Positions 3,557 through 48,200 of a DNA stretch of 64,000 nucleotides are shown piece after piece. Under the pieces are notes generated by a model, which searched no databases, was not told the DNA's origin, and saw only the letters and a program-made list of their open reading frames with translations. Origin of the DNA: a virus (lineage: Duplodnaviria; Caudoviricetes); IMG/VR virus record IMGVR_UViG_3300021091_000011; one strand, 5' to 3'. Within the stretch, counting starts at the first letter, position 1, and each line of letters starts with the position of its first letter. The position numbers and the translations under genes are program-made.

Positions 3557-3644
3557 TGGAATTACCCTCGGGCATTTTTTGGGTGCGGTTTCAATACGCG
3601 ATCTGCGCGATAGCGCAGATCACTTGAAAGTTTTTCGAGCGGTT

Positions 3645-11596: not shown

Positions 11597-14500
11597 TTAT
11601 ACGCCTTGCGGCGTTTCCCCACCCCCCTTAGCATTTGCTATGCGGAAGGCCAAAAGCGTTTTTCGATGCTCGGCGGCGTCGTTTTGCACGGCTTTCGTAA
11701 CTGCCGACGCTTGGCCCACAATCAAAACCTTTTTTCGAGCGCGTGTAATCGCCGTGTAAAGCAGATTGCGCTGTAACTGCCGCCCGAACGTAGATAGCAA
11801 GGGCAAAACAATCACGTCATACTCTTGACCCTGCGAGTTCCAGCCGGAAAAACCGTTCTGGATAAACCTGTGCGTTTCAGGAACCTCGACGCACATCGAA
11901 GGGCCATAGGCGGGCTTAATACTGACGATCTTTTCGTGGTGATACCGCGTGCGGGCACTCAACGCGGGAAAATGCTGAAGCACCTGCACCGAGGGTGCGG
12001 ATCGATTACGCCCATGACCCAACACGCGGGCTTCATCAACCGTAATAGGTATTAAGTTATCGTTGGGATAATCTACTCGGCGTTTCGCTTGCAAGTGAAT
12101 CGAGTCCGAATGATCAAAACCGATTCGATTAAAGAATCTGTCTAAATCTCGACCACGAATAGCAAGATTTTTATTTTTCATTGAAGTACGCGCGACAATA
12201 CCTTCATCTAAAAGCATCGCACGCAACGCGGCGTTTGCAGAATCGTTCTTTGAACGAACCCAAATGCAATCGAGCAGGCTTTCGCTATCCAACGGATATT
12301 CGTACTTGACCATCGCGGACAAGAAATACCCTCGCAAAAACGCTCGACGAACGGATTTGTTCGACGCAAGTATCAAACGAGGGATTTCATACCCTCGACT
12401 TCGATAGAGTTCTGGAAAGTTTTTCCAGAACCAATCCATGATGAAACGTAAATACATACGAATCAGATACGGACGATTCTCGGCAAGCGTTGATTTAGGA
12501 TGCGTGCCGAATAACCTGTAAAAAACGTCATGGATTTTATTTAGTATCGACCCAACATCGGTTCTATAATGCGAATAAACACGATTATTGTCTTTAGGGT
12601 GCAAGTTGACATAAAAAGTCTTGTGTTTGACTTTCGCAAAAGCAGAAAAAATGCCGATTAGTTCCGCGATTTCTTCATTTAAGAATGGTGGGTATTTTTT
12701 CTTCCCGATTTTCGGCGCGTCTAACGGAAGCAACGTCTTATCATCGGCATAAGACGGCGAAGGGACCAAGTAAAGCCAATCATTCTTGCGAAGTTCCCCC
12801 GCCTCTTTGCGAACGTATCGTCCGTCAACGCGGCTCCAAACGTCGATGCCGTGTTCGGGCGTCATATATAATGTGTAGCCGCTCGTGGTTTGAACCTTGA
12901 GCAGCGGGCCACTTGGGTACTCGGTCTTATTGACGAATGGCCTCACGCCGTCCGGCGTGCCAATATTGCCCGAATCCGGCAAATGCTTGATCTGGTAAAG
13001 CCCGCCATCGTGCCAAGTAATCGTCGAAGGGTGGACGCATTTGTGGACGGTCTGCGCGTAAGCCAAGCGCAACGTCTTAGCCGCGTCAGACATTGGGAAT
13101 CGAACGAGTGCTGACGGCGTGCCCGGAACGCCAAACACATTGGCCTCAATCTCTTTCGCCACACGGTCAATCCGGCGCACGGTGCCCACGTCGCCGTTGT
13201 AGACACCCTTCTGGTAATCGTTCTTGACGACCATGATTCGGTCGCCCTCGCGCACAACGGAAGTGCCGATCTTCGTCTCGCTCATGCCCGACATCGGAGG
13301 GTTTAACTGCGAACGAATACGGTCATTGAGCACCGTCACGCCCGCATCGCCCGAATGACGTGGCGACAAGACTTGAAAGTTCGACCGCTTCTCGTAAAGC
13401 GCCTGCGTCAACCGCAGGATAATCTCAGACGCCTCGGTCTCCGTGCTGGCAGGCACGATCACGAAATCACGCCCATCGGATTCCGGAGTCCGGCCTTTAT
13501 GAACGGCGTGCGCCGCAAGCACGATGCCGTTTGTGTCCTCTTGCCGAAAGATGCGATCCAAATGCGTGTGCGGAAACGACTTGCTCTCAACCAAGTCGCC
13601 CAACACATCACCCGCGCCCACCGAAGGCAATTGATAAGGGTCGCCGACGAACACCATTCGGCAATCTAGTTTGGTGCCGGACAAGACTCGATGGAGCATA
13701 TTCAGGTCCACCATCGAAGTCTCGTCAACAATCACCACGCTGGCCGGATGCGGATTTCCAGGTCCATACCCCCACGTTTCGTCCGTAGGGCTGTTCACCG
13801 TTTTCTTCGTGTCCGTGTCACCCACGAAACCCTCGTAGGCGACCTCACGATCATCCGACTCGCCGTATTTGCCCTTTGCTCCAAAAGCGCGATGAATCGT
13901 AAAAGCGGGCGCATTGACGACATTGGCGAGCCGTTTGGCCGCGATGCCCGTCGGGGCTACGAGCAAGAAACTAATGCCCGTGTCTTTAAGCAAGGTCACG
14001 ACGGCGCGCAAAGCCGTGGTTTTGCCTGTTCCGGGCAAGCCCGTGATCAAGCAGACGTTGTCGGTCAATGCCGAAAGAGCGGCGTTGAGTTGATCCTCGG
14101 TCAGCGTGATACCAGAACCCAATGACCAATCGGCCAATGCCGACTTGACGATGGTTTTGTGGTCCGCACCTGATTCTACGGAAGCCTGCGCCTGCGGCCC
14201 CACGCGAGCGAAAAGCGGGCTGTAATCCTGCGAAGGCTTGGTCTGCAAACGGCTCACTAAAGTCGTCGCGCACGTTTGTTCCAAGTCGTAAATCGTCGGA
14301 TCGTAAAGTGCGACGGTGCCCGCTTTCGTGTTTCGGTCTAGTACCAGCGCGTTTGACCTAACGAGGTCTTTCACGGCTTGGGCAACCGCAGCGTCATTCG
14401 CATTTGGAACCAGAGTAAGGACGTTCGATAGGACGTCGCTCATCGTAGAATACAAATGCCCTTCGGACGCCGTGTTGTTCATAGTCGCCAAAACCGCGCC

Positions 14501-15124
14501 ACACATACGACTTGGCGAGTCCAATGGCACGCCGAGCCTGCGAGCGATTTCGTCTGCCTGCGCGAAGGTGATGCCGTCCACTTGCACGAGTGCCCAAGGG
14601 TCTTTCGTGACGATGGTTTCAACGTCGGTGGAGTATTTCTTCCAGACGCGCTCGATCATCGCGTTGGGCACTCCGGCCTGAGCGAGAAAAGCGGCGGCGT
14701 ACAAATGCGCCTTCGCCGCCTTCCAACGCTCACCAACGTAAGCAAGTTCAGGCGGTAAACCTTCACCCTCTAACACGGACAAAAGGGATTGGTTGCCTGC
14801 GTGCCCCATCAAATGCACCCGCACGCCAGGCCCAATGCCCTGCGCGGATAGAATCGAAAGCACACGGTCATTCGACCAATGCTCGGGAACGACCGGACTT
14901 CGCTCTACGGCGATCTGACGTCCATAGGTCGGGTGAACCGTGTAACGTCCCTCAAAGCAAACCCAAGTACCCGGCACAATCGCCTGACCTGAGAAATGCC
15001 CTTTGGCCGTGACTTGACCACCGGAGTCGTCAAGGCTGATTTTTACGATTCGGAAACCAGCACCGTCATCGTAAGTGACGGTGCTGATGCGTCCCGAAAA
15101 GACCTGTAAAGTAGAGTCCGACAT
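11597..15124 (-). CDS. recD: RecD2-like SF1B helicase containing an intein
   Basis: HhH-like N-region, GLPGTGKT, VDETSM, GDPYQLPSV, spliced motif AYAQTVHK|SQGQEY and LLYTAITRA. Confidence 0.93.
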   Translation of the reverse strand: MSDSTLQVFSGRISTVTYDDGAGFRIVKISLDDSGGQVTAKGHFSGQAIVPGTWVCFEGRYTVHPTYGRQIAVERSPVVPEHWSNDRVLSILSAQGIGPGVRVHLMGHAGNQSLLSVLEGEGLPPELAYVGERWKAAKAHLYAAAFLAQAGVPNAMIERVWKKYSTDVETIVTKDPWALVQVDGITFAQADEIARRLGVPLDSPSRMCGAVLATMNNTASEGHLYSTMSDVLSNVLTLVPNANDAAVAQAVKDLVRSNALVLDRNTKAGTVALYDPTIYDLEQTCATTLVSRLQTKPSQDYSPLFARVGPQAQASVESGADHKTIVKSALADWSLGSGITLTEDQLNAALSALTDNVCLITGLPGTGKTTALRAVVTLLKDTGISFLLVAPTGIAAKRLANVVNAPAFTIHRAFGAKGKYGESDDREVAYEGFVGDTDTKKTVNSPTDETWGYGPGNPHPASVVIVDETSMVDLNMLHRVLSGTKLDCRMVFVGDPYQLPSVGAGDVLGDLVESKSFPHTHLDRIFRQEDTNGIVLAAHAVHKGRTPESDGRDFVIVPASTETEASEIILRLTQALYEKRSNFQVLSPRHSGDAGVTVLNDRIRSQLNPPMSGMSETKIGTSVVREGDRIMVVKNDYQKGVYNGDVGTVRRIDRVAKEIEANVFGVPGTPSALVRFPMSDAAKTLRLAYAQTVHKCVHPSTITWHDGGLYQIKHLPDSGNIGTPDGVRPFVNKTEYPSGPLLKVQTTSGYTLYMTPEHGIDVWSRVDGRYVRKEAGELRKNDWLYLVPSPSYADDKTLLPLDAPKIGKKKYPPFLNEEIAELIGIFSAFAKVKHKTFYVNLHPKDNNRVYSHYRTDVGSILNKIHDVFYRLFGTHPKSTLAENRPYLIRMYLRFIMDWFWKNFPELYRSRGYEIPRLILASNKSVRRAFLRGYFLSAMVKYEYPLDSESLLDCIWVRSKNDSANAALRAMLLDEGIVARTSMKNKNLAIRGRDLDRFFNRIGFDHSDSIHLQAKRRVDYPNDNLIPITVDEARVLGHGRNRSAPSVQVLQHFPALSARTRYHHEKIVSIKPAYGPSMCVEVPETHRFIQNGFSGWNSQGQEYDVIVLPLLSTFGRQLQRNLLYTAITRARKKVLIVGQASAVTKAVQNDAAEHRKTLLAFRIANAKGGGETPQGV
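11837..13039 (-). mobile_element. Intein (401 aa) with degenerate LAGLIDADG domain
   Basis: Begins CVHPST, ends GFSGWN before S. Visibly more AT-rich than the flanking exteins. Confidence 0.92.
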
Positions 15125-27105: not shown

Positions 27106-27483
27106 ATGAACAAGATTTCTTCGCAAGACCGAAGCGCGCTGATCAAGTTGGCATCAAGTCTGCCCGCAGGCGACGAAACCCGTCGCGCGATTCTCGCAGG
27201 CTTGACCAAACTCGCCGCCCCCTACAAGCACGACAGCACCACCAGCGGTGGTAAGCGTTGCCGCAATCAATCCTGCGGCGGCGTCGGCGCACCGGGCAAA
27301 GGTTTATCCGAGTACGACCTGCTCGCAAACTACGGCGATCACGTCGGCACCGACCACGATCCCCAAAAGAATATGGCGGGCTATATGCGTTGGTGGCGTG
27401 AAAACCAAGGTCAACACAAAGACCGCACCGTGAGCCCCACGGGTGCAGGCAACGAGACTTTCAATCCTCAAAAGAAGAAGTAA
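27106..27483 (+). CDS. DRSALIKLA-leader protein, unknown cargo
   Basis: AGGAG RBS; ATG 27106; same leader as 26400. Confidence 0.75.
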   Translation: MNKISSQDRSALIKLASSLPAGDETRRAILAGLTKLAAPYKHDSTTSGGKRCRNQSCGGVGAPGKGLSEYDLLANYGDHVGTDHDPQKNMAGYMRWWRENQGQHKDRTVSPTGAGNETFNPQKKK

Positions 27484-27508
27484 GTAAGTCTCCCCCCCTA
27501 GCCCTTAG

Positions 27509-27544
27509 AAAAGCCCTCTCGCTCGCGCAAGAGGGGCTTTTTTT
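27509..27544. terminator. Intrinsic terminator (bidirectional-looking)
   Basis: AAAAGCCCTCT...AGAGGGGCTTTTTTT. Confidence 0.85.
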
Positions 27545-27570
27545 ATGCCCAAAAAGCGTATGATCACGCT

Positions 27571-27660
27571 ATGCCTAGCAACACCGTCAGACTGATTCTC
27601 GGCGATAGCCTTGTCAAACTCAAAGATTTCTTAATCCGGCTATACCAATCTAACGCTTAG
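27571..27660 (+). pseudogene. Truncated copy of the MTase 5' end
   Basis: MPSNTVRLILGDSLVKLKD is identical to the 29110 start, then diverges at 27626. Confidence 0.85.
27632..27645 (+). promoter_or_regulatory. Representative of the TAA-NNN-SSCTATM motif (putative late promoter)
   Basis: Also at 16358-16371 (minus), 26342-26355, 52009-52022 and 57912-57925, with variants at 18897 and 27064. All lie 28-54 nt upstream of a start. Confidence 0.55.
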
Positions 27661-27682: not shown

Positions 27683-28798
27683 ATGAGCATGATTTCGCGG
27701 GTTGCGCAGAGATTCTTGCAGGCAGACGCAGTCAAAATTCATTGGTGGTTTCTTGACGCGCATGAGGACCCGACCGTCAAACGTGCCGCAGAACGGCTAT
27801 GGGGTTCCGTCGGTTCCGGGCTGGCTGAGATTGCCCCCATAAATGCGAGACTGCGGGCAATGAAACCCGAGGACGCGCACACGCCCAACGGTTTTCAGAC
27901 GGTGCGCGCCGACGTGAGTCTCGTTACAAGTCCGCAAGTAGAGGGCGTCGCTTTGCACTTGGATTTTTCTTTGGACGGCCGGACGGTCCTGTTCAACTCC
28001 AAGTTGAGAGTCAATCACCCGAAGTTTGCGGCTTTGCATGGTAAGAAAGCAACGCCGGCCAAGATTCTGTCAATTCTCTTTGCGGACTTCACGCAAAAGA
28101 AAGCCGAGTCCAATGCGTTTCAAGACGAACTCGACGCGGAATATGCACGGGTTCGGGCAAACTTTCAGACGCAAGCCGAGGACTTCGCCAAGTTTCTAGC
28201 CTTCCAGATTCCCACACTTCGGTCCAACGTCCCGGCGATTACCGGGAGTGTCAAGTCCGTCACGGCTTCCGAGAATGGCTTTTCGGTCGTGTCGGAGTTC
28301 AAGACCGCCACGGGCAAGCCTTATCAGATAGGGTGTGACGTCCGAAACGGAACGTTGCAAATCACACGTTCTGACGGTAAGCCCGGGTCTAAGTTCTCGA
28401 TAGACTCCGGGGACACACGTTCAGTCGGCAACGCCGTCCATCATGTTTTGAGTGTGGCCCGTGGCATTGCCAGTAGTGAGAGTCAGGCGTCGGACAAGGT
28501 GACGGCTCTGATTCAAGCCACGCGGACGGAAAAGGGCGGGCGAAACCGTAAGGTTTCGTTTATTCCTGGGAAGACCCCGCGTTGGGACGTTCGACCGGAC
28601 ACGCCGAAGTCTTTGGACCATTACGGTCCTGACGGTTGGGACGAAGACGCGTGGACGGAAGAATACGCGGAGCCGATTGAGACGGCGGTGCTCGCCGAGT
28701 TAGACGCCGCTTTTGGACGCGGTATGTTCCACATCGACGTAGAAGAGAACGGTGATTTCACCGTTTACGCGACTCCGGCTGGTGCCCGACTGTTCTAG
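27683..28798 (+). CDS. Hypothetical protein with SRVAQRF leader (putative virion-associated)
   Basis: Long ORF; TAATCCGGCTATAC upstream; MSMISRVAQRFL start. Confidence 0.75.
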   Translation: MSMISRVAQRFLQADAVKIHWWFLDAHEDPTVKRAAERLWGSVGSGLAEIAPINARLRAMKPEDAHTPNGFQTVRADVSLVTSPQVEGVALHLDFSLDGRTVLFNSKLRVNHPKFAALHGKKATPAKILSILFADFTQKKAESNAFQDELDAEYARVRANFQTQAEDFAKFLAFQIPTLRSNVPAITGSVKSVTASENGFSVVSEFKTATGKPYQIGCDVRNGTLQITRSDGKPGSKFSIDSGDTRSVGNAVHHVLSVARGIASSESQASDKVTALIQATRTEKGGRNRKVSFIPGKTPRWDVRPDTPKSLDHYGPDGWDEDAWTEEYAEPIETAVLAELDAAFGRGMFHIDVEENGDFTVYATPAGARLF

Positions 28799-29046
28799 TC
28801 GACGAGCTTCTTGACGAGAGCCTCGATGCGGGCCGACAAATGGGTCCGCACGATTTCGTCCGTGGCCTTACGTCCCGAATCAAGAAATCCGTCGGGAGTA
28901 TTTGAGACGAATCGAACGTCTTAATAACGCTCAGGCGGCGAGCGAGGCGGTCAAAAAAGACCGCACCGTGAGCCCCACGGGTGCAGGCAACGAGACTTTC
29001 AATCCTCAAAAGAAGAAGTAAGTAAGTCTCCCCCCCTAGCCCTTAG

Positions 29047-29083
29047 AAAAGCCCCTCTCGCTCGCGCAAGAGGGGCTTTTTTT
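29047..29083. terminator. Intrinsic terminator (second repeat copy)
   Basis: AAAAGCCCCTCT...AGAGGGGCTTTTTTT. Confidence 0.85.
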
Positions 29084-29109
29084 ATGCCCAAAAAGCGTAT
29101 GATCACGCT

Positions 29110-29763
29110 ATGCCTAGCAACACCGTTAGACTGATTCTCGGCGATAGCCTAGTCAAACTCAAAGACCTAGCGCCAAACTCAGTAGACGCCGTAGTTTCAG
29201 ACCCACCCTATGAATTAACCGCTAACAAAAAAGGCGGCTCAGGGGTTGCCAGCATCAATCTTGAAAGTCCATACGGACGTTCACGGATCGGAACGGGCAA
29301 CGGCGGCGGCTTTATGGGTATGAAATGGGATTCGACCGGAATCGCCTTTTCACCCGAACTTTGGGGCGAATGCTTTAGGATTCTAAAACCTAACGGCGTT
29401 ATCAAAGCCTTTTCAGGCACGAGAACTTTTCACCGAATGACCCAAGCCCTGAAAAAATCAGGATTCGTAGACTTTGAAATTCACGCTTGGACTTACGGCT
29501 CAGGCTTCCCGAAGTCTATGGACGTGAGCAAGCAGATCGACAAGGCGGCGGGCGCGGAGCGGGAAGTGGTGGGGCGTGTGGCAGGCATGGGTAAGCAAAA
29601 CCCTGAATGGAACGGCACCGCACAAGGACGCGCTGAAAACTCGTTCAAGTCGGAATATGATGCAACCGCACCCGCCACCGATGCCGCTCGGCAATGGTCC
29701 GGGTGGGGCACCGCTCTAAAGCCCGCTTGGGAACCAATCATCGTCGCAAGAAAGCCAATATGA
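29110..29763 (+). CDS. Beta-class DNA MTase N-terminal (catalytic DPPY) polypeptide lacking motif I
   Basis: VVSDPPY, GFMGMKWD, YGSGFPKS and GWGTALKPAWEPIIVARKPI*. Confidence 0.85.
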   Translation: MPSNTVRLILGDSLVKLKDLAPNSVDAVVSDPPYELTANKKGGSGVASINLESPYGRSRIGTGNGGGFMGMKWDSTGIAFSPELWGECFRILKPNGVIKAFSGTRTFHRMTQALKKSGFVDFEIHAWTYGSGFPKSMDVSKQIDKAAGAEREVVGRVAGMGKQNPEWNGTAQGRAENSFKSEYDATAPATDAARQWSGWGTALKPAWEPIIVARKPI

Positions 29764-29846
29764 TCATCCACGTCTTGAGAAAGCCGTTGTCAGACACGGT
29801 CGCTCAAAACGCCTTGGCTCATGGAGCCGGAGCAAGGTGCCATTGA
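29760..29846 (+). pseudogene. Truncated MTase middle-segment gene
   Basis: MIIHVLRKPLSDTVAQNALAHGAGA matches 31280, then breaks at about 29834. Confidence 0.8.
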
Positions 29847-30339
29847 ATTCTAAAGCCGCCCCCATTTCAGGCAGGAAATAGTCTAGTACGGTCCCATAGC
29901 GACCATTTGGCCCCCGTAGATAATACTGATGTACGCAGGGCACACCTAGACGTTGAAGCACATCACCAACTTTCATTTCTAAGCCCGAGACGCGGGGTAT
30001 ACGGCCTTCCGCAATCGCCAAAGAAGTTGTCTGAGATAACTTGGCCTTGGTTTCTTCCGTGTGCTGATAGTTGCCCGCCGCCTTTCGGCGAACATTCATC
30101 TCACGTCGACGTTCGGCCTGCGCTTGTCGGGTAGCCTCTGGAATGATATAGGGCGTTTCTACTTTCCGACCTACCAAGCCCATCGAGCGAGCCTGATAGG
30201 AGCATTTGCGGGAGCATAAAAACGCCGTGGTCTTCGACCGAGCCACCACCGAAGGTGGTCTGGTTACAGGAGTGCCGCAAACTCCACAAGATTTTGCGAT
30301 TGAGAGGGTGTTGCTCTGCCCCACAGGGCGTGAGAGCAT
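29835..30339 (-). pseudogene. Truncated homing-endonuclease-like gene (Zn finger + NUMOD3-like + Vsr/DUF559-like)
   Basis: CGVCG..LCSRKC; HTEETKAKLS; SGLEMKV..Q..LDYFLPE..ALEFNG, then lost before the expected His motif. Confidence 0.7.
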
Positions 30340-30480
30340 TTACGAGAACAAGTCGTCTGCCGCCCATGTAATAAGCGGGTAGGGTCTGCTTGGTATAGGT
30401 CCCCGCAAACGGGGCAAAGTCGTTCAATCACGAGGTCACCACCTATGACAAATGAGGGAAACGGTCGTAGGGAGGGTCAG

Positions 30481-31283
30481 ATGATTCGCTTGGTTTTAGG
30501 GGACTGCATCGAGAAAATGCAGGATATCCCCCCAGGAACCATTGATGCGATCATCAGCGACCCTCCCTACGGCTGAATATATCAGGACTAGAATTCATGG
30601 GGAAAGAATGGGACGCACCTTGGAAGTCAAACGGATGGCAAGCCGGAGGCGGGTTCTCTAAACCTGGTATTGGCGAACGCCATACCGCATGGCCTAGTTT
30701 CACCGCGACTTCTAAGTTCGGTGCCACAAATCCAACTTGTGAGACTTGTGGGGGACGTGCGCGAGGTAAAAAACGCTGCGGTTGCGCTGAACCACAATGG
30801 AAAGCCATCGGCAAACGCCGCCACGTCGAAAATGAAGGCTTACCGTCTGACGTTACGAGTTCAGGGATGAGTAATCACCTTCGCCACTTTCAAGATTGGT
30901 GCGAACTTTGGTCAAGCCAATGCTTTAGAATCCTAAAACCTAACGGCGTTATCAAAGCCTTTTCGGGGACACGAACTTTTCACCGTATGACCCAAGCCCT
31001 GAAAAAATCAGGATTCGTAGACTTTGAAATTCACGCTTGGACTTACGGATCAGGCTTCCCGAAGTCTATGGACGTGAGCAAGCAGATCGACAAGCAAGCG
31101 GGCGCAGAACGAACGGAAGTCATAAAGCCGTTCAATGACGAAAACGGTTGGAACGCGAACGGAACCACGGGCGACCACGCCTATACCGCACCCGCCACCG
31201 ACGCCGCCCGTCAATGGTCCGGTTACGGCACCGCTCTAAAGCCCGCTTGGGAGCCGATCATCGTCGCAAGAAAGCCAATATGA
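30481..31283 (+). CDS. Second MTase N-terminal polypeptide, interrupted by a 14-nt insert after DPPY
   Basis: MIRLVLGDC...SDPPYG* followed, in a shifted frame, by GLEFMGKEWD...ARKPI*. Confidence 0.8.
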
Positions 31284-31738
31284 TCGTTCACGTCTTACGA
31301 AAGCCATTGTCAGGCACGGTCGCTCAAAACGCTTTGGCTCATGGAGCCGGAGCATTGAACATCGACGGATGCCGGATTGCTGTTTCTAGCGAAGAAAGAA
31401 AAACCTACGACGCCAATATGCGTGCGCTTGAACGGTACGCAGACGGCAGAGAAAAAATCGGGCAGTTTGAGGGTGGCTGGAAAGCAGACCCGTCCCGTGT
31501 CAAAAACGTGGGCGCTCGCTGGCCCGCTAATCTCGTCCATGATGGAAGCGAGCACGCCCTAGATAATTTTCCCGAGGCGGGAAATGGATGGAAGAAAAAT
31601 TACGGTGATGAAGTCTATGCCGTTGAAGGCCGTCATTATTCCGGAGGTTCTTTTGGCGGTGGTGGTTTTCTAGGGGGTAGCACTTATACGGACTCAGGCT
31701 CGGCATCTCGATTCTTTCAACAAGTGATAATCAAATGA
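31280..31738 (+). CDS. Free-standing MTase middle (variable/TRD-like) segment
   Basis: MIVHVLRKPLSGTVAQNAL, GALNIDGCR, RWPANLVHDGS, DSGSASRFF; ATGA overlap. Confidence 0.8.
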   Translation: MIVHVLRKPLSGTVAQNALAHGAGALNIDGCRIAVSSEERKTYDANMRALERYADGREKIGQFEGGWKADPSRVKNVGARWPANLVHDGSEHALDNFPEAGNGWKKNYGDEVYAVEGRHYSGGSFGGGGFLGGSTYTDSGSASRFFQQVIIK

Positions 31739-32163
31739 TCGTTCACGTCCTGAGAAAGCCATTGTCAGGCACCGTCGCTCAAAACGCCCTGCAACACGGC
31801 TGCGGGGCATTGAACATCGACGGATGCAGGGTTAGTTTGTCTTCCGATGAAAATCCAGACAAGTTGAGCGCGAGAAGCGGTGGGAACCGTGGTTTTGCTG
31901 AAGATTATGTAGGCGGGGTAACACGAAATTTACCTGCTGGTTGGGATTGCAGCAAGGGGCGTTGGCCCGCGAATCTCGTCCATGATGGAAGCGACGAAGT
32001 TGTAGAGACGTTTCCTGAGAGCAACCGCTGGTTCAACGCACCGAGAAATAGCGATGGAAAAGGCAAAGACGGCCAGATTTTTGATACTCACCGTGGCAGC
32101 GGGATGGGTGGCGGCGACTCCGGTTCGGCATCTCGATTCTTTCAGCAAGTAACCCTCAAATAG
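31735..32163 (+). CDS. Second free-standing MTase middle segment
   Basis: Same three constant blocks with different variable inserts. Confidence 0.8.
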   Translation: MIVHVLRKPLSGTVAQNALQHGCGALNIDGCRVSLSSDENPDKLSARSGGNRGFAEDYVGGVTRNLPAGWDCSKGRWPANLVHDGSDEVVETFPESNRWFNAPRNSDGKGKDGQIFDTHRGSGMGGGDSGSASRFFQQVTLK

Positions 32164-32480: not shown

Positions 32481-32987
32481 ATGAAGAAGAATCCTTTGAT
32501 AGCCGCGAAGATTAAGTCTTTGGTGGGTGTGTTGAAGGGTGTGGGCGACAAGGCTACGCGCGTGGCTTGTCTGCTTGGCGTGTTGTTGGGGGAGACGAGC
32601 GCGGAGGGTTTAGTCTCTTTGCGTGGTGAGGCTTCCCTTCTTCGCATACGTCGGGTGTATGGGAAGGTCTATGGTGCGGAGTTGGCCGACCATTTGGGTC
32701 GGTTGCTTCCGGAGGGCGACGTCCCTTGTCTATTGGGGCGTGGCGGCAAGGCGTTATCCCGAGTGACGTTGTGGCGTCGCGTGGGGAAGATCGGCTTGGT
32801 GGGTCTGCGTCGTTTATCGTTGGCGTTTCGCAAGTTCTTTATGGAGCATTGCGAGACGCGGGAAGAGGCGCGGGATTGTGCGTCGGGGACGGGCTTTGTG
32901 TTGGGCACGCCGACGTCTTGGGTTCGTGTGTACGCTTGGTGGCCTGACGCACCGGATTGGTGTGGGCGGGTGAGGCGCTTTATATAA
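32481..32987 (+). CDS. Hypothetical basic protein (possible HTH)
   Basis: G+T-skewed ORF; TGGTATGAT extended -10-like sequence just upstream; LSRVTLWRRV. Confidence 0.4.
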   Translation: MKKNPLIAAKIKSLVGVLKGVGDKATRVACLLGVLLGETSAEGLVSLRGEASLLRIRRVYGKVYGAELADHLGRLLPEGDVPCLLGRGGKALSRVTLWRRVGKIGLVGLRRLSLAFRKFFMEHCETREEARDCASGTGFVLGTPTSWVRVYAWWPDAPDWCGRVRRFI

Positions 32988-33035
32988 GCGTGTTTGCGTC
33001 GTCGAAGCCGCTTGGAATGGGTGAGGGAGATTCAC
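32814..33035 (-). pseudogene. Truncated LPxPF paralogue (first about 11 aa only)
   Basis: GTGA-coupled MNLPHPFQAAS, then unrelated sequence running antisense into the 32481 ORF. Confidence 0.6.
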
Positions 33036-33310
33036 GGGGCTTTGCTTCCGTGGCCGTAACCCTGACCGTGACCGCTGCCGTAACTGCCACCGTAGCCGTA
33101 ACCGTGGCCGCTTCCGTCGCTGAAGCAGTCACCGTAGGCGCTTCTGTGCCAACGAGAACGCTGCGGCGGCGGCGGCGACAACTCAAAGGCCGTGGTCAGC
33201 GGGACTTGAGCGAGTGCCTTACCCTTGGCGTCAATCAGACTAATCGAGCCGTCGAGATTAGGCTTGACGTCAGACGCCGCTTGAAACGGTGGTGGGAGGC
33301 TTTTGATCAT
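33032..33310 (-). CDS. LPxPF-module protein with G/Y/H/S tail
   Basis: LPPPFQAASDVKPNLDGSISLIDAKGKALAQVPLTTAFEL + GYG repeats. Confidence 0.8.
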   Translation of the reverse strand: MIKSLPPPFQAASDVKPNLDGSISLIDAKGKALAQVPLTTAFELSPPPPQRSRWHRSAYGDCFSDGSGHGYGYGGSYGSGHGQGYGHGSKAP

Positions 33311-33705
33311 CTATATACGCCGTCGATTGAGGCTATTCCCCCATGGGTTTGGATCAGTTGTCTGAGGATTTCATGCGGCACATAGGCGTAGACGGTGTCC
33401 GTCGGGTCGTCTGAGTTTTCAGCGTAGGTTTGGATCAAGTCGTCAGGTTGATTGGGGAAGCCTAACTCATAATGAGTCCACGGCCCATGGTCCTTGCGGG
33501 GTCGGCAGTAGTGCGTTGCGCTGGCCCTTACGGAGACGGAGAACCCATCTTTGCAAGTGACCCGACCTTGATATAGGCCCAAATCTAAGGCCGTGTGCAG
33601 CGCAACTTGAGCGAGCGTCTTACCCTTGGCGTCGATCAGATCGAGTGAGCCCTGAGCGTTAGGCTTGATGCTCGTCGCGTCTTGAAACGGTGGGGGCAGT
33701 TTCAC
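33307..33705 (-). CDS. LPxPF-module protein fused to a folded phage domain
   Basis: Module + DGFSVSVRAS.THYCRPR..ELGFP..TVYAYVP..HGG. Confidence 0.85.
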   Translation of the reverse strand: MKLPPPFQDATSIKPNAQGSLDLIDAKGKTLAQVALHTALDLGLYQGRVTCKDGFSVSVRASATHYCRPRKDHGPWTHYELGFPNQPDDLIQTYAENSDDPTDTVYAYVPHEILRQLIQTHGGIASIDGVYR

Positions 33706-33932
33706 GGGCTTCTCCCACCGTCACCTTCGGACTGCTCATCACCGTAACCGCGTCCGTCACCGTAGCCACGTCCGTCACCGTAACCGTGGCCGTAGTCTTT
33801 TGTGCTCAACTCAAAGGCCGTGGTCAACGGGATTCGCGCCAACGGCTTGCCCTTGGCATCGGTCAGGCTGATCGTCCCGTCGGGATTAGGCTTGAGGTTA
33901 GTCGCGGACTGAAACGGATGTGGTAGGTTCAT
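33702..33932 (-). CDS. LPxPF-module protein with GYGDGR tail
   Basis: Module + (GYGDGR)n; 4-nt overlaps at both ends. Confidence 0.85.
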   Translation of the reverse strand: MNLPHPFQSATNLKPNPDGTISLTDAKGKPLARIPLTTAFELSTKDYGHGYGDGRGYGDGRGYGDEQSEGDGGRSP

Positions 33933-34282
33933 TTGGGAACCTTGCCTCCGGAGCCGTTGCCGATTCCAAATGGGTCGTATCCGGCACCTGAGTTGCCATC
34001 AGCGAAGCGGCATTTAGCACCTAAAGCGTCGCTGTAGCCGTAGTTCAGCGAAGCGAACAAAATGCCGCCGCCGAAAGGCATGATTTCAGATATGTTGGTC
34101 TTGTCGAGTAGCGAGTAGGCCGTGTTCAACGGCACGCGGGCAATCGGGAGGTCATTTTCGGTGGTCAGGTCGATTGTCCCATCGGCGTTTACGCGAATCC
34201 AGCGCACGTCTTGAAACGGACGTGGCAACGGCGACCGACTATGTGCAGGGTAGTGGACGTTGTCTGAGATGTAACCGTTCAT
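33929..34282 (-). CDS. Diverged LPxPF-module protein
   Basis: LPRPFQDVRWIRVNADGTIDLTTENDLPIARVPLNTAYSL. Confidence 0.8.
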   Translation of the reverse strand: MNGYISDNVHYPAHSRSPLPRPFQDVRWIRVNADGTIDLTTENDLPIARVPLNTAYSLLDKTNISEIMPFGGGILFASLNYGYSDALGAKCRFADGNSGAGYDPFGIGNGSGGKVPK

Positions 34283-34605
34283 GGGGACTTGCCTTTGCCG
34301 CTTATGTAGCCTTGGCCGTAAGCGACTCCGATTCCGAATCCTTCGCCGTAGCCGATTCCGAATCCATCACCCGAACCGTCTCCGTGATCTTTGCCGTAAG
34401 TGCCGTAACCGAAATCTCCATCGCCGCTGCCATCGTTGCTTGGCTTGAAGTCGCACTCATCCTTGTCACCGAGCGGCGACAACTCAAAAGCCGTGGGCAT
34501 CGAGATTCTTGCGAGCGGCTTCCCGCTCGCGTCGATTAGGTCGATTGAGCCGTCGAGATTAGGTTTGAGACCCGTCGCGGACTGAAACGGTGGGGGCAGT
34601 TTCAC
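34279..34605 (-). CDS. LPxPF-module protein with G/D/F/Y tail
   Basis: Module + GDG/GFG/GYG repeats. Confidence 0.85.
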   Translation of the reverse strand: MKLPPPFQSATGLKPNLDGSIDLIDASGKPLARISMPTAFELSPLGDKDECDFKPSNDGSGDGDFGYGTYGKDHGDGSGDGFGIGYGEGFGIGVAYGQGYISGKGKSP

Positions 34606-34961
34606 GGGCTTCTCCCATTAGCCCTATGGGAACGCTTGCCGTAACCGTCACCGTCACCGTGACCGTCACCGTAACAACCGATACCGCGACCGTGACCGTC
34701 ACCGCGACCGTTGCCGCGACCGTCACCGTAACAACCGTAGCCGTAACCGTCACCGTAGCCGAGGCCGTAACCGTCGCTGTAGCCGAGGCCGTAACCGTGA
34801 CCGTCACCGGAACCGTAGCCTGCGGCCTCGGGACTTAGATCAAAAGCCGTGGTCAACGGGATTCGCGCCAACGGCTTGCCCTTGGCATCGGTCAGGCTAA
34901 CCGTCCCGTCGGCATTGGGCTTGATGCTAGATGCGTCTTGGAACGGATGGGGCAGTTTCAC
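34602..34961 (-). CDS. LPxPF-module protein with GYGDG tail
   Basis: AGGAGA RBS before GTG 34961; module + GYG/GDG repeats. Confidence 0.85.
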   Translation of the reverse strand: MKLPHPFQDASSIKPNADGTVSLTDAKGKPLARIPLTTAFDLSPEAAGYGSGDGHGYGLGYSDGYGLGYGDGYGYGCYGDGRGNGRGDGHGRGIGCYGDGHGDGDGYGKRSHRANGRSP

Positions 34962-34978
34962 GGAGTTCAGTCTCCTGA

Positions 34979-35455
34979 TCAATCATCAATGTCTTCGGAG
35001 ATGTCGAATGCCTCGATGATCTCGTCAGGCAGGTCTCCGTGTGAGGTCACGGTATACTGTTGGTCCTCGCCGTGCCCAAAGATTCCGGCGAAAGCCATGC
35101 CAGGTTCATAGTAGAGCCCTCTGACGTCGAAACCGAGCTTGATTAGGTGTTGGTAGAACGCGATTGGGGGCGACCAGGCCGTGAAAAACTTAGCCGTAAT
35201 CTCTCCGTGGACGGAGGCAGTCACGGAACCCTCATCTATGTCCCATTTCGTGCCCCAATTGTCACAGCACCAATCATAACTGTCCCTAGCACCGTACTTA
35301 GCGAGGTTTTGCTCGGCAGACTGACCCTCCAATTCAGGGGGGCATGGCAGGAACTCGTGGAACAGTTCGTTGCGACTTAGGGCTTTCTCGGCGCGGGTTA
35401 GTTCGTCCACGGACTCGTGCTTCAGCGTCAGGTGGTTCATACACCAATTGGGCAT
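34979..35455 (-). CDS. DUF1281/YubB-like ferredoxin-fold protein
   Basis: MPNWC, DWCCDNWGTKWD, FFTAWSPP, YYEPG. Confidence 0.8.
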   Translation of the reverse strand: MPNWCMNHLTLKHESVDELTRAEKALSRNELFHEFLPCPPELEGQSAEQNLAKYGARDSYDWCCDNWGTKWDIDEGSVTASVHGEITAKFFTAWSPPIAFYQHLIKLGFDVRGLYYEPGMAFAGIFGHGEDQQYTVTSHGDLPDEIIEAFDISEDIDD

Positions 35456-41734: not shown

Positions 41735-42292
41735 ATGAGCCTTAGTATCTCACTTAACTCTAGTGCTGCGAAGTCCGGTATCTCTGGACCGCTTTGGTTT
41801 GCGTTTAGTCGAGAATTCGGCTTGGCTTTGGCTTCATGGTTGAACGCGAGTGCCTACGGCTATTCGCCTCTTGGTATTGCGCCTCCGGCTCCGTCTCCGA
41901 TTTCAGTAACGGGCTCGGGTCGATTGCAGACGTTTCGTGTGAGGTCACCTTCTGGCGTCAGTTCGGGACCTTTGGGCGTGAACACGGAGCGTGCGATTCT
42001 GGATGCGTTGGTTTTCGTGCCAATGGTTTTGAAGCCTCTAGGTTCTGGTTCGGGCTCTGGTGTGAGTCCTATATTGCCTTCGGGTAGTTTCCGTTCGAGT
42101 CTTGGTCCGTTGGGTGGTTATCTGGTCGCGCGTGTGGGGACGTTATCTGGTCCTGTTGGCAAGTCTTGGCTTTTGGATTTCGGTACTCGTCTGGAATCAG
42201 GTATGTCGTTTGTGGGTACTGCGACGGTGATTTCTCAAGTGCCTGTCCCCGTCCCCGTGATCGTATCTGTGGGGGTGATATGTCCTTTGTGA
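41735..42292 (+). CDS. Putative virion protein (S/G/V/P-rich)
   Basis: Overlaps the start of the giant ORF; similar composition. Confidence 0.55.
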   Translation: MSLSISLNSSAAKSGISGPLWFAFSREFGLALASWLNASAYGYSPLGIAPPAPSPISVTGSGRLQTFRVRSPSGVSSGPLGVNTERAILDALVFVPMVLKPLGSGSGSGVSPILPSGSFRSSLGPLGGYLVARVGTLSGPVGKSWLLDFGTRLESGMSFVGTATVISQVPVPVPVIVSVGVICPL

Positions 42293-45200
42293 TTAGCGGG
42301 TCTGGTGATCTATCTGGTGCGGTGGTCTGTGTGCCGAGCATCTGGATTAGACTTGGTGATCCTTGGACGAGGGTTTGTCCTCAACCTGCGAACGCGGTCA
42401 ATCTTTTTGCATCAGCCGCCGTGAACAATAGCAATAGTGCGGTCACTCTCACGCCTCGTGCGGTCGACTTGTATCATTGGGTTGAATCTGGCGTTGAGGT
42501 TAGAAATGTCGGCGCGATTAAGCCTTCTGGCAACGTCATACCGAGTGGGTTTGCTGTTGGCGATCAACTGCCTGATTACTTTCTTTTGGGTTTGGGCGGT
42601 GTGAGTGTTGATTGCGAGTTAGTGAGTAACAATCCCGGTGGCTTAACGCCTAATAGGGCTTACCTAAACATTAACAACGGCGAGTTTTACTTAGGCGCGG
42701 GCTTGATACTCGAAACTTTGCAGTACGGCCTAGACACCGTGCAGAGTTTAGTGGTTGGGGGGGATAACAAGGCCCGAGTTTGGGTGAATACGCTGCGTGT
42801 TGGCTTGGGTTTGGTTTTGTCTGACTGTATCTACGGCGTGTTAAACTGCCGTCTAGTAATCTCTGACTCAGACTTGCCTTTGCCTGCTGGTATTAGCCCG
42901 ACTGAGTTTTACTTATCGCTTGCTTCGGGCTTGTGTGTATTTTCTTCGGTTTATATTTCTGGTCGTGTGCTGAAAATCTTGGGCGTGGGCGTTTCTAGTA
43001 ATCCCGTGCCGAATGTTCGTCATGTAGTATTGAATGCGAACGGTCGTGGACAGGTTCCCGCAGCCGATTCGTTGACCTTGTGGCCGTCGAACTTAGCGGG
43101 TTGGTCGCGTGGGCCGATTACGGCGGTTGGCGATAGACCTTCGGCGTGGGGTGTTGTTACTGAGAATTCGGGCGAGTTGTTTATCGTGGGCAAGCGTGAT
43201 TTGCTTGCGATTGTCGAGTATGACTCGGACTTGCCGACGCAGGGTTACGGTTTGAATCGTGAGCGGGGGTATTACTCGCTTGAGTCTGGTGCTTTGCAGG
43301 TTCGTTCGGGTGTGGGCAACGAAGTTGTTGATTTCAAGTGTGGGTTAGTGCCTGTTGGTTTTGAGGCTCCTGTTGGCGTCGTCAGTTTAGTGGGTTTGCT
43401 TCGTGGTCCGTTTGACTTGAGCGGCGAGACATTTGTTTTCGCGCTTGACGGCGTTGTGACGTCATTTACGTTGCCGATTGGTAGATATACTTCGGGTCAG
43501 TTGGCCGTGTTGCTTAATGCGGCCTCTGGTGTTCCGAATGCGTGGTTTGATTTAGCGGGTGGTTTGGCTTGCGTAGCGAACGCGAGCATTGAGATTGGTT
43601 GGGGCGACGCTCGTATTGGTTTCGCGCAGGGTTGGATTGTCACGTCGGGCGCGCGTTGGAATTCTTACAACGGCTTGGCGATGGGCTTATATCGTCAGGT
43701 GGGCGAGGGGGATTTGACCGTCCGTTTGTACGGCGAGGTGGACGATGAGATTCTGGTCGAGAAGATCGGCGAATCTTCGTTGGTCTATTTGGGTCAAGGT
43801 TTTCCGGACGCGCTGCAATCTGGTTATGAGCCCGATGGTTTCTTTGAGATTGTGGGTTCCAACGGCTTGATTTCGCAGCCGTTGTCGGGTCGTCCGACGG
43901 CGGGCGTTTTCACGAGTTCGTGGGGCGTGGGTTTGCTTTTAGATTGCGTGGAGCGCAATCGTTTCTCGTGGGTCGAGCGTTTTGAGACGGGGTCTATTTC
44001 AGTAGACAACGGCGTGGATCAAATCACGCTCGACGGCTTGGGCGTGATTTCACTTACTCTTGAGGTCCAAGAGCCGAATTTGCCGTGGTTGCCGCAGGAG
44101 TATGTTCTCGTCGGCAACACGGCGTTGTTTTCATCGCGCATCGGCGCGGATTTACTATCGGGCGGCGTGGGCGAGTCTGTATCTGGCGTTTTCACGGACG
44201 TCACGATTGCTGATTTCACAGTTGCAAACGTGAACGTCGGTGACTTGCTGGTGACGAGCGATAATCTCGTCTATCGAATCATCAGCGTCGCGGCGGGTGC
44301 GTTGGGTTTATATCCGAGTGATTCGTTCGGGCTTGTGGGTTGGCAGGTTTTAGATACCGAGCCTGTTGGTTTAGCCGTGTACGATCCGGCTTTGATTGCC
44401 GACAGGCAGTTTTTACAGTTGCCGACGTGGGACGGTGGTGATCCGTTTGCGATTCGGGTGATTACGCCGTTATCGGGCGCGACGGCGAATCTTTCTAAGC
44501 CCTATGCGAAGTCGCTCCGTTACGGTGCTGTGGACGCGGGCAATAGTGCTTTGGACTTGCTTGTGCGTGGCGTGAGCATGGGCGCTTTGTCCTCGCAGAT
44601 GCAGATGCCTGCTTTTGTTTTGTCAGACCCGCATTACACGACGAGTACGGCGGGTGGTTTTTACTTCAGCCTTCGTGTGCCGACGGCTGTGATCGTGATT
44701 ACGTCGGCCTTCACGGTGCCTTCGCCGCCGCTTGGCGTGATCGAAGTCGGCCTATTCGGTTCGGGCATCAGCGGCCAAGTGCGTGTCGCATCGAACTTAG
44801 TGACGGCCTATGCTGATTTATTGGTCTACTACGATCAAGAGTTCTTGCCCGCTGGCGTGATCGTGAACGCCGAGGGCGATATAGCGACGGGTGCATTGAA
44901 CATTCCGACGGCGTATGCGGGCGAGTCGTTGTTCTTGGTCGAGAAATACACGTCGGATTCGGTGACGGTGAGCCCTGTTCCGGGCACGGCGTTTTTTCAG
45001 ACGCCGATTGAGCCGAGGCAATACGTTGAGGCGACGTATTACCCGACGAACTCGGGTGGTGTGAATAAGACGGGCGACTTGATTGTCGAGTTCATGCCCA
45101 TTTCGATTCGATTGGAGGAAGCGACGCGCATCAATGCGCGGCTTTACAGTTTCAATCCATCGGGCTTGGCGTATGACTCTGCTTCGGAGCCGATGATTTG

Positions 45201-48200
45201 GGTCGGTGCCGAGATGCAGAATTACTCGGGCAATCTTACTGCTACTGTAAACGGTGCATTGTCGCAGATAGCCTTTACTTACGACGTGCCCATAACGTCG
45301 AAGGTTCAGATTACCTACTCGGTGCTCAACGCGCCTTTGGGCACGGCTTCTCAGTCGTATCAGGTCACGCAGGCTCCGGTGTGGCAACCGCCGTTCTGGT
45401 TGAACGCGGGTCAATCGGTGTTTGTGTTGGAGGGTGATCGTACTGCGACGGTCGCGCCGGATCATTTGATCGGCGTGGGCGGGAAATACGTCGCTTATGT
45501 GCAGGGCGTCACGTTATTGCCGAGCGGCGATACGCAGGTCGAGATTTACCCCGCGCCTGTGCGCGAAGTCGGTTCACGTTCGCCCGGCGTAGATCAAGGC
45601 TTGGTGATCACGGATCGTAATGTAACGGACGTGGACTTTATTCAGGTCGTCCCGAACGCATTTCTCGGTGCGGGCGTTGGCGCGAGCCTGATTCAGTTTT
45701 ACGGCGATGCGAGGTCAATCATCGCGCCGAGGCATTTGATTGACCTCGACGGCGTTCCGTATCTAGTCCAGAACGTCCAACTCACGAGCGATGGGCGCAA
45801 GACCGTCGCTTACCTGCAAATTCCTTTGCAGCGTGACGTGGCCGAGGGGTCAGTCGTCAAGTGCTCTTTTAGGCCCATTTACCAGAATCAGCCCATAGAT
45901 TTCACTATCTCGGGCACGCAGATTACGGGCACGAGTTTCACGGCTATTTTATTCTCGTCTGATTCTTCGATTCCTGGCAAAGTTCTAGTCCCGAATACCC
46001 AATACGTCGTCGAAAACGGCGCGCTCAAGTTTCAGACGCAGTTTCAGACGCCTTTGCAGCCGAATGAACGGTTGTACGCGAGTTACACGAAAAGCAAGGT
46101 GATTTCGCCGACGATGATTGACGATGCTTTGGTCGTGCCGAAGTATCGTGCGACGTACTTGGCGATTACGCAGCCTTCGGACGCAAATGGTCTGTTGGGC
46201 GGCGTGTTGAAAGGCAAGTATTTCTATCTCGACGCTGAATCGTTCACGCTGAAGATTCAGCCGATTGCCGACTACTTGCCCATAGTATTACTCGACGCGG
46301 CACGTCGTCCCGAGAATCCCGATGATACGGCCACCCCGACGCCTTTCCCGCAAGGCGGCGCGGTGACTGTGCAGAAGCAGGCCGAGAATGCGCGCAACGC
46401 CTATTGGGATGCCTTGAATCTCGATGCGGGTGGGCGCGTGTTCGTCACGCTGTTTAACAACGCCGTGACGCCCTTCGAGCAAGTGCTTGAGACCATCGAC
46501 GGTCGCGTCATCGGTGACCGCGATGGCAAACTGCGGTTGTATGTCGGTCCCGAGTCCGTCACGCCTATTGCGGGCGGTGTTTATGCGCTCACGTCGCATT
46601 TGTACCCGCGCGTCGTATGGCGTGATTTGTTGGAAGCGTGGTCGCCGAATACGTCCGGCTGGTTCTTCATGCCCGACGACTTTATCTATGACCCTCGCTC
46701 TATCACGTTGGGCGTAAATCCGGGCTCTTTGAACGGTTACCCGCCTTCCGGCCCTGATCTGGATTTCTTCATTGACTTGCAGCGCGAGTATCAGCGCAAC
46801 GACGTAGACGACGTTCTAATGACGTCGTTCAAGCGCAACGTAACGCTCGCTAACACGCTATTGCCCGTCATTACGTTCAAGGGCCGCTTCGAAAGTGCGT
46901 GGCAACCTAACGCATTCTCACGGCTCTATCCCGAGCAGACGCGCTATTTCACGCGGCTATTGCCGGGCCTTGAGGCGCAGATTGACGCTAACACGGGCGA
47001 AGTAATCGACGCAGGCTTTTACTCAGCCGGACGGCTGCTGCCCGTCGCTGGTACTCAGCCCGGAACGACAGTTAACAAGGTCGTCAAAACGCGCAACACG
47101 GTCATCGGGCAAATCTCGAACCCCGTCTTGGGCGAACTCAAGAACGTATCTGATATCACGGCCAATGACCGTGGACCTCGTGCGCGCGTGTGGGCCTATT
47201 ATCCGAACGGCAACGCCGCTTTAGATGCCGCACTTGCTTTGGCGACGCCGACGGTTGGCCGCGCTACGCTGGTGTTGACGCCTCAGACGATTAACGACTT
47301 CGTGATAGATCAAATCACGGGCTTTCCGGACACGAGCCTGCTGGTCACGAATGGCGGCGCGAATCCTGACGTGAACTCAGGTGATGCCGAACTGTCTACG
47401 CCGGAGTTTGCCTCCGGCGATCAGATTCTCTTGGGCAATCCCGACGGCACGGTTCGAACCGTTTACTTGCCCGCATCCGGCCTTGGCGCTGCCGAGAATC
47501 CCGTGTTCGTGGACGATATTCAGGCCGGATGCGTAGTCTTCCTGAAGGATTTGAACAATAGTGCCCTTTCGGGCGCGCAGATTTTTATGTCGGACCCCAT
47601 ATCAGGTGGCGGCATTAGTTTTGATCCGACGCAGGGCGACACGATCTTCACGCCGACGTCGCAAGCGGCGATTGCACCCAATCTTGTGAGTGATCCGGTG
47701 AGCCTCGCGGACGCCGCGAAGTTGATTGAGACGAACGGCGACTATCGAATTCAGAATGACCTCAAGGTGCGCCGCAGGACGGGGCAGATTCTCGACGCCA
47801 GCCTGCCCGTCGTAGAGGACATTTGGGGGCTTCCGATTCAAGATTGGGCGGGTCAAAACCCGCCGCTTCCGGGCTCTTGCATCGAAGGCACGGCTGATAT
47901 TATCAACGCCGACTCGGAACCCGCCCGATTGCCCGCGCTCTTTGGCGGCACTCGTGACGATTCCGGCGATAATCAGATTCCGTTTTTGGCGTTGGGCAAC
48001 ACGGAAATTCGGCTACTGCAACAAGCCTCGCGTTTGTTTGACGGCTTGTTTCTGGACTCAGCGGCACCCGTTCAAGCGGTGTACCCCGATGAGATCGCGG
48101 TGTCCGATGGCGTGATTTACGGTGCGGTGACGGGTGGCTTGGAACCTGCGACGCTTTACACGGCGACGGCGAACTTCACGCCTGTTTTCGTGGCGGGCTC

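Follow-up and report, generated by a model that had tools for sequence, protein, structure and literature searches.

How can a DNA methyltransferase operate when consecutive parts of its chain are carried by separate genes and the part that binds S-adenosylmethionine (SAM) is not encoded beside them? That question is raised by positions 29110–32163 of a 64,000-nucleotide (nt) stretch of IMG/VR virus record IMGVR_UViG_3300021091_000011 (hereafter the window, meaning the whole stretch analysed), which is part of a ~204-kb (204,357-nt) metagenomic phage contig from lake water. The plus strand of this locus carries a catalytic-half module (N1), a truncated module of a putative DNA-reading type (T), a second catalytic-half module in two pieces (N2), and two further T modules (T1 and T2). 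The best explanation as a whole, to which we assign a probability of roughly 0.6, is that these genes are an accessory, partly damaged set belonging to a three-component beta-class enzyme, whose third component, a hub (C), would be supplied in trans.

The two catalytic-half genes have their DPPY motifs at 29200 (N1) and 30559 (N2), and the last two thirds of N2 are 91–93% identical to N1 at the DNA level. Both end in EPIIVARKPI, with their stops in the same ...AAGCCAATATGATC context and the ATG of the next gene overlapping the TGA. In fact, the start codon of every downstream gene of the locus overlaps the TGA of its predecessor in this manner. The three T genes, at 29760, 31280, and 31735, all begin with MI[IV]HVLRKPLS. 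T1 and T2 have in common the blocks MIVHVLRKPLSGTVAQNAL.HG.GALNIDGCR, RWPANLVHDGS, and DSGSASRFFQQV..K and diverge in between, a pattern that is repeated at the DNA level in direct repeats D1–D6. A sequence-only reading of the window had described the reused break, the three T starts, and the shared NIDGCR, RWPANLVHDGS, and DSGSASRFF blocks with their differing middles, and all of these were found at the positions it gave. Beyond that description, the locus also has a 14-nt insertion in N2, an endonuclease-like gene on the minus strand, a stub of N1 at 27409–27626, and a stop shared by T1 and T2, in that T1 stops with TGA and T2 with TAG at an identical codon position. Since the position is the same and the codons differ, the stop would seem to be part of the module. 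N1, T1, and T2 are intact and retain all family-invariant residues, and two other assemblies (L004 and L005) match this locus at 99% identity, with its open reading frame (ORF) structure unchanged.

Alignment of the N and T proteins with the methyltransferases of Pseudomonas phage PotUPM1 (WEV89998.1) and Mycobacterium phage BaboJay (gp99) showed that they correspond to successive parts of one chain, which in those enzymes continues to H(P/N)TVKP...DPFxGSG. These single-chain phage enzymes of Pfam family PF01555 are the closest family, with 40–48% identity and the same order of blocks: DPPY...GSGFPKS...EPIxVARKP, then LxGTVAxNxLxHGxGALNIDxCR...RWPAN...RFF, and finally HPTVKP...DPFxGSG. About 60 more distant IMG/VR relatives are also ordinary single chains. 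Compared with such enzymes, the system described here has three gene types, a second copy on T of the strand that closes N, an additional dead lobe on C, and multiple T and N variants per genome. The sequence-only reading had stated that these segments are normally a single chain followed by HPTVKP...DPFxGSG, and that this last part is absent here. The alignment bears out the former, and neither a motif scan nor a hidden Markov model (HMM) of the C part found the latter within 29110–32163. Within the window, DPFxGSG occurs solely in a pair of intact, unrelated methyltransferases at 451–2543.

Family membership follows the same lines. N1 matches PF01555 over profile positions 1–90 of 221 (E = 1.7e-5, 25.3 bits) and N2 scores 24.9 bits, both under the gathering cut-off of 26.7 bits; relatives of the C module also carry PF01555. 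Because the SAM part is lacking and the scores fall under that cut-off, the locus does not qualify as a complete PF01555 enzyme. T1 and T2 match no Pfam family at E <= 0.1, including Methylase_S (HsdS), and a PDB sequence search with T gave only a weak match, to 21nr_A ("TLP-IPT"; E = 7e-4 over 38 residues). A separate observation concerns P0010, a one-chain relative of 245 amino acids (aa) from another genome (188,647-nt contig), which keeps the T region and its flanking strands, whereas DPPY and the glycine-rich SAM motif are both missing. This protein may be a methyltransferase-like reader of DNA that is dead throughout.

N, T, and C each occur as standalone genes in large metagenomic families found only in viruses. 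More than 100 standalone T proteins of ~140–150 aa were found in a search limited to proteins of similar length, along with thousands of candidate N proteins. The C family has 35 members, which keep HPTVKP and DPFLGSGTTG and lack DPPY. DPPY and the full set of motifs IV–VIII are invariant across 57 standalone N modules, and N1 has every invariant residue; the C family shows the same constancy in HPT.KP and DPFLGSGTTG. In the ESM Atlas, the T clusters carry no annotation and are 100% viral, and a full-length C module was found in 0 of 50,697 deposited phage genomes.

The general gene order in relatives is T(n)-C-N(n)-(T). For example, a 47-kb IMG/VR contig (L003) carries six T genes, C, two N genes, and a short T, with a C gene of 611 aa whose motifs read HP(intein)TVKP and DPFLGSGTT. 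A second contig (L077) has three T genes, then a C (P0123) of 239 aa that lacks an intein, and lastly a single N, and two others (L007 and L075) have simply T, C, and N. T, N, and C modules with the same junction logic occur on a 375-kb contig (L082) where C is only ~40% identical, T starts with MIITLLRKPL, and N ends with WEPxCxGVKK. Overlaps of the form (A/G)TGA were present at 23 of the 23 junctions examined, and the duplicated strand (an N end of ...EPxxVARKP or GVKK before the stop and a T start of M-I-x-x-x-L-R-K-P-L) occurs in the window, L003, L077, L007, and L082. Natural in-frame fusions of T with C also exist (P0126 and L083). The split is a conserved design and no one-off break. 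The sequence-only reading had argued against a single nonsense mutation, and the intact ORFs on either side of the same split in distant relatives uphold that argument.

If the SAM-binding part is not at the locus, is it elsewhere in the genome? A standalone ORF with HPTVKP and DPFxGSG, of the kind that the sequence-only reading had thought might be encoded elsewhere, does exist in P0381, a C module of 256 aa that carries HPTVKP and DPFLGSGTTG but no DPPY and falls in a 90% cluster of C modules. A protein-database record places P0381 on the 204,357-nt contig that also holds the window proteins P0001 and P0242. An N module ending in EPIIVARKPI (P0263) and two T modules (P0075 and P0051) are listed for that same contig and are absent from the window. 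Moreover, two short Logan contigs (L085 and L086) read P0075-ATGA-P0381, and the contigs of these paralogs have the same depth in the three lake-water runs in which the window occurs. P0381 and the L077 hub are intein-free, unlike the hub of L003. Together, these records support the view that a motif-I subunit is encoded on the same contig beyond the window, where it immediately follows another T gene. They therefore speak against the absence of any such subunit from the genome, which the sequence-only reading had named as grounds for rejecting its proposal. The third subunit had been pictured as the SAM-binding third of the enzyme. The SAM part is indeed present, but C also includes an additional, catalytically dead lobe that appears to be a socket for T.

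Selection on the modules was gauged by the ratio of nonsynonymous to synonymous substitution (dN/dS) against orthologs, which was 0.09–0.31 for N and 0.15–0.39 for T at dS values of 0.4–2.5, with all ORFs intact. For the individual modules, the values were 0.09–0.20 for N1, 0.32 for T1 (against Tb of L003), and 0.25–0.27 for T2. Such low ratios in unbroken ORFs rule out neutral decay of the family and indicate purifying selection instead, an outcome that the sequence-only reading had left to such a comparison. Within T, the segment between NIDGCR and RWPAN is termed V1, and that between HDGS and DSGSASRFF is termed V2. Classification of 62 T modules gave 22 classes for V1, 28 for V2, and 15 complete four-gamete rectangles. 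T2, for instance, has a V1 that is 84% identical to that of L003 Te and a V2 that is 98% identical to that of L003 Tc, and T1 matches L003 Tb at 75% in V2 and only 19% in V1. As judged from these sequences, the two variable segments of T reassort freely, in a recombination pattern like that of HsdS and without any sequence relation to it. Differences between the window and the near-identical strain L005 are mostly short, clustered patches in which the conserved end of one module has been copied into another, and clustering of this kind argues for gene conversion between modules.

Structure prediction offers a view of how the parts might fit together. In the C family, ~105 residues ahead of the SAM half resemble a methyltransferase half-domain without DPPY. 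An AlphaFold2 (AF2) model of C had a predicted local distance difference test (pLDDT) score of 80 and a predicted template modelling (pTM) score of 0.66. The model as a whole gave no good superposition with small enzymes of the beta class (Foldseek TM ~0.27 over ~250 columns), and VIA-align matched residues 1–110 and ~78/118–221 separately, which suggests that C is made of two lobes. A complex of C (P0123, from L077), N1, and T1 was then modelled and scored on T1 as the partner. The score was 0.90, versus 0.39 for the best of three controls; 58 of 80 solved complexes attain the mark used for this score, as do 2 of 110 mismatched pairs. Agreement between runs covered at least 73% of contacts, with a partner pLDDT of at least 60. 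In the model, T residues 3–8 (VHVLRK) pair with C residues 63–73 and 93–100, with no T contact past C residue 110, so T would supply the strand missing from the first lobe of C. The conserved core of modelled T touches N1 at residues 124–146 (the WTYGSGFPKS region) and 192–207 (GWGTALKPAW). These predicted contacts support binding of T to both C and N modules. Of course, the pass may partly reflect likeness, because solved single-chain enzymes hold an equivalent strand intramolecularly.

Considering all of this, the genes of the locus would provide accessory subunits for a beta-class DNA amino-methyltransferase with three components, carried by a freshwater phage of ~204 kb. N would be the catalytic half, with motifs IV–VIII including DPPY; T would combine a short strand for anchoring with a variable region, in two parts, for reading DNA; and C would be a hub that joins a dead mini-domain to the true SAM-binding half with its HPTVKP and DPFLGSGTTG. 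A primary operon of order T-T-C-N-T, predicted to lie ~98 kb upstream on the same contig, would encode the hub P0381, P0263, and at least two more T modules, and the intact N1, T1, and T2 would most likely act in trans with that hub. The N-terminal strand of T (IVHVLRKP), a duplicate of the final strand of N, would complete the sheet of the dead lobe. N should pack on the SAM lobe of C, because DPPY is invariant on the one and the SAM motifs on the other, and this pairing would create the active site. The variable loops of T would then face the active site, with the dead lobe and T acting as the DNA-reading partner, and several T (and N) variants on a single hub could provide several methylation specificities against host restriction. 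The sequence-only reading had proposed a multi-subunit methyltransferase with exchangeable specificity polypeptides in the manner of HsdS, and this idea is supported by the conserved split, the dN/dS values of 0.09–0.39, the reassortment in T, the existence of P0381, and the modelled binding of T.

A more ambitious form of the proposal is possible, although we hold it tentatively and would not give it even odds. Here, the enzyme would be a genome-dispersed combinatorial methyltransferase, where the hub mimics a beta-class homodimer (a dead reading lobe plus a live SAM half), about five T modules plug in by beta-strand complementation, and two to three N modules are interchangeable. The N × T combinations could thereby write many motifs, and new specificities would arise by reassorting the variable halves of T.

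The features of the locus and its upstream flank are collected in Table 1.

Table 1. Coordinates of the methyltransferase modules and associated features in the window.
Feature	Position	Strand	Details
Upstream copy of 219-nt direct repeat	27409..27626	+	terminator plus N1 stub (first 18 codons)
GC-rich hairpin plus T run, terminator-like	29047..29080	.	inverted repeat I3 with 15-nt arms, 93% complementary; just upstream of N1
N1, standalone catalytic-half (N) module	29110..29763	+	217 aa, motifs IV–VIII, VVSDPPYEL, ends EPIIVARKPI then stop; ORF intact
Truncated T module	29760..29846	+	28 aa; 25 conserved codons (MIIHVLRKPLSDTVAQNALAHGAGA), then foreign sequence; T HMM positions 1–25 only
Degenerate free-standing homing-endonuclease-like gene (tentative)	29764..30431	-	two CxxC...CSRKCS repeats, NUMOD3 motif, Vsr-like tail
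N2, 5′ part	30445..30573	+	MIRLVLGDC...IISDPPYG; N HMM positions 3–32
14-nt insertion in N2	30574..30587	+	TGAATATATCAGGA; begins with stop codon (TGA) and shifts the frame
N2, 3′ part	30588..31283	+	Cys-rich loop variant, ends EPIIVARKPI then stop; PF01555 match, repeats D2 and D3, ortholog P0262
T1, standalone DNA-reading (T) module	31280..31738	+	152 aa; V1 class 6, V2 class 0; ATGA overlap with N2
T2, standalone T module	31735..32163	+	142 aa; V1 class 0, V2 class 1; ATGA overlap with T1; TAG stop

From its gene organisation, the locus looks like a secondary and partly damaged copy. N1 and the truncated T resemble the P0263–P0051 junction, with the start of the truncated T matching P0051, the T module found elsewhere on the contig. 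The truncated T ends where the endonuclease-like gene begins, and the 3′ end of the latter runs antisense into it. This gene is itself split over two frames and has weak matches to NUMOD3 (E = 0.01) and DUF7836 (E = 0.06); a 55-aa ORF within it also matches, again weakly, the HNH endonuclease family phrog_1271 (E = 2e-5) along 37 aa of zinc-finger sequence. No phage match to the ORF was found by tblastn. The minus strand in this interval is tentatively regarded as a degenerate homing-endonuclease-like insert.

N2 is read as two ORFs, at 30445–30576 (...IISDPPYG) and 30597–31283 (...EPIIVARKPI), and its true start is likely the ATG at 30481. Without the 14 nt it would read DPPYG-LEFMGKEWD, and DPPYGLEFMG is what P0262, an ortholog without the break, has at this point. 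The same 14 nt recur unchanged in L004, L005, and contigs of three runs, so sequencing error was rejected as the cause of the break. Versions lacking the 14 nt or the endonuclease-like insert were not seen among the contigs of the runs, which may hide rare variants. The 14 nt can form a 4-bp hairpin (CTGA-ATATA-TCAG) ~140 nt from the endonuclease-like gene, with an unremarkable RNA fold z-score of 0.34. As for translational bypass, the would-be take-off (GGC) and landing (GGA) codons differ. The hop in gene 60 of phage T4 reportedly travels with the homing endonuclease mobA, and the placement of the 14-nt insert near an endonuclease-like gene recalls that arrangement; it may instead be a simple inactivating insertion.

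A further rearrangement lies upstream, where two direct repeat copies (27409–27626 and 28949–29165; 97.7% identity by blastn) bracket a 371-aa ORF at 27683–28798 that has no family match. A copy of the N1 start, NTVRLILGDSLVKLKD, was located at 27580–27627 by tblastn. This interval looks like an inserted gene cassette with a duplicated 5′ end of N1, which would have left a dead N1 stub upstream. Switching by inversion, as in a shufflon, was considered and rejected for the locus, as every module copy is in direct orientation and the inverted repeats amount to short pairs that look like chance.

Several points weigh against the three-component explanation. T was modelled at a pLDDT of only ~60, and the lobes of C in the AF2 model of C alone take up a non-canonical arrangement, which fits the proposed assembly without proving it; the meeting of DPPY (on N) with the SAM site (on C) falls outside the model. 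N2, which would be expected to couple translation into T1 and T2, is broken, making expression of these two genes uncertain. Local decay is evident in the truncated T and the degenerate endonuclease gene, and the support for a primary locus is limited to protein-database contig records, short Logan contigs, and equal depth. An alternative that we consider unlikely is that the whole locus is a non-expressed, decaying duplicate, in which N1, T1, and T2 are kept open by gene conversion and serve at most as a recombination reservoir. The truncated T, the endonuclease-like gene, and the 14-nt insertion would all be in keeping with decay, as would the conversion patches seen in L005, the lack of a C gene at the locus, and the likeness of N1 and the truncated T to a copied P0263–P0051 junction. 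However, the V1/V2 combinations of T1 and T2 are unseen in the other known T genes of the genome, meaning that these genes would add specificities and not copy existing ones. Moreover, the variable parts of T1 and T2, which lie beyond repair by conversion from paralogs, are open and, when compared with orthologs from other phages, have dN/dS values of 0.25–0.32; the locus has also kept its start codons and ATGA coupling and is unchanged in three samples. Decay had also been offered by the sequence-only reading as its second option, and it holds locally, where one T is truncated and N2 is frameshifted, but not for the system as a whole.

A different doubt concerns whether the assembled complex is a multi-specificity methyltransferase in the first place. 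It might conceivably be a sequence-reading regulator, an anti-restriction decoy on a dead scaffold, or an enzyme for some other SAM-dependent DNA modification, and the dead lobe of the hub, the conditional status of the DPPY–SAM meeting, and the four other methyltransferase genes already present in the window (451–4859) could be taken that way. We judge this improbable given that 57 N modules preserve DPPY and the whole of motifs IV–VIII without change, that the C family does the same for HPT.KP and DPFLGSGTTG, and that the closest relatives are ordinary single-chain methyltransferases of N-T-C order. Least credible of all is the notion that the split is only apparent, with modules (N-T or T-T) joined at expression by frameshifting, hopping at ATGA, or protein splicing. 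A -1 shift would suffice at each junction, and the genome is intein-rich, with inteins in RecA, RecD2, and PolA of the window and in the C gene of L003. Yet no slippery heptamer occurs, the junction is conserved across loci only as (A/G)TGA, and no intein motifs are found at the module ends. A fused product would hold the anchoring strand twice, a T-C-N gene order would not yield an N-T-C chain, and the stop codons of T1 and T2 differ although they occupy the same position. Selected fusions, where they exist, are made in DNA (P0126 and L083). A three-component enzyme with its hub in trans is preferred here.

Other parts of the window also contain genes of interest. On the minus strand, 451–1473 and 1470–2543 are tandem complete PF01555 methyltransferases (339 and 356 aa) with identical N-terminal (SLKSMPEKSVHTCVTSPPYWGLRDYGHDGQIGLE) and C-terminal stretches and different middles, which would represent a second, single-chain way to vary specificity. 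They are followed at 2540–4859 by a D12-class gene and another PF01555-like gene. Inteins with LAGLIDADG or Hint matches occur on the minus strand in RecA (6388–8931), a RecD2-type helicase (11597–15124), and a family A DNA polymerase (60979–63990). Small paralogous ORFs occupy 32957–34982 (minus-strand ORFs at 33032–34982); they start with M.LP(H/P)PFQ(D/S)A...KPN.DG(S/T)(I/V).L(T/I)DA.GK.LA, have Gly/Tyr/Asp-rich (GYGDGHG) tails, and match no family. Two giant ORFs lie at 42166–52011 (3281 aa) and 52060–57369 (1769 aa), the latter without a Pfam match, and a 324-aa ORF at 58627–59601 matches the thaumatin family (PF00314, E = 1.7e-15), an uncommon find on a phage-like contig. No tRNAs were found in the window, and a promoter and terminator scan gave fewer matches than shuffled sequence and was uninformative.

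To our knowledge, a DNA methyltransferase is regarded as a single chain whose specificity is fixed in the protein, except in Type I (and some Type IIG/III) systems. Full-text literature searches, with subscription journals outside their coverage, found no description of a three-part beta-class enzyme. If correct, the proposed arrangement would explain how a large phage could be protected from many restriction systems using little coding space, would assign a function to unannotated virus-only protein families, and would provide a natural plug-in scaffold for engineering methylation specificity. What this particular locus would add is that the parts can be scattered about a genome and act in trans, that they evolve by two-segment reassortment and gene conversion, and that selfish elements (the endonuclease-like gene and the 14-nt insertion) attack conserved module ends.

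Among known systems, the multispecific C5-cytosine methyltransferases of Bacillus phages, such as M.SPRI and M.Phi3TI, also address several targets through several recognition modules, although all of these modules are in one chain, and the naturally split C5 enzymes M.AquI and M.EcoHK31I are also multi-chain methyltransferases, although with two chains and one specificity (PMC2836561, PMC3404938). Both belong to a different class from the beta-class amino-methyltransferases, and the analogy is functional only. In Type I systems, a separate specificity polypeptide (HsdS) serves a shared methylase core (HsdM), and HsdS, like T, has two variable regions between conserved blocks that are reassorted by recombination. 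The hsdM and hsdS genes even overlap with translational coupling (PMC3510504), much like the coupled genes here. Nonetheless, this too is a functional analogy only. HsdM is gamma-class and the core here is beta-class, with no sequence relation between HsdS and T. T is modelled to dock by strand complementation, and several T genes stand side by side where HsdS has one S gene or invertible half-genes.

A further parallel, again one of function only, is with the division of labour in beta-class dimers, including M.EcoP15I Mod2, CcrM, MettL3-MettL14, and MTA1-MTA9, where one protomer reads the DNA, the other methylates it, and one partner can be catalytically dead (PMC7544214). By comparison, the dead lobe of C together with T would correspond to the reading protomer, and N together with the SAM half of C to the catalytic protomer. 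The difference would be that the two pseudo-protomers of the phage enzyme are spread over three polypeptides and that the reading part is exchangeable.

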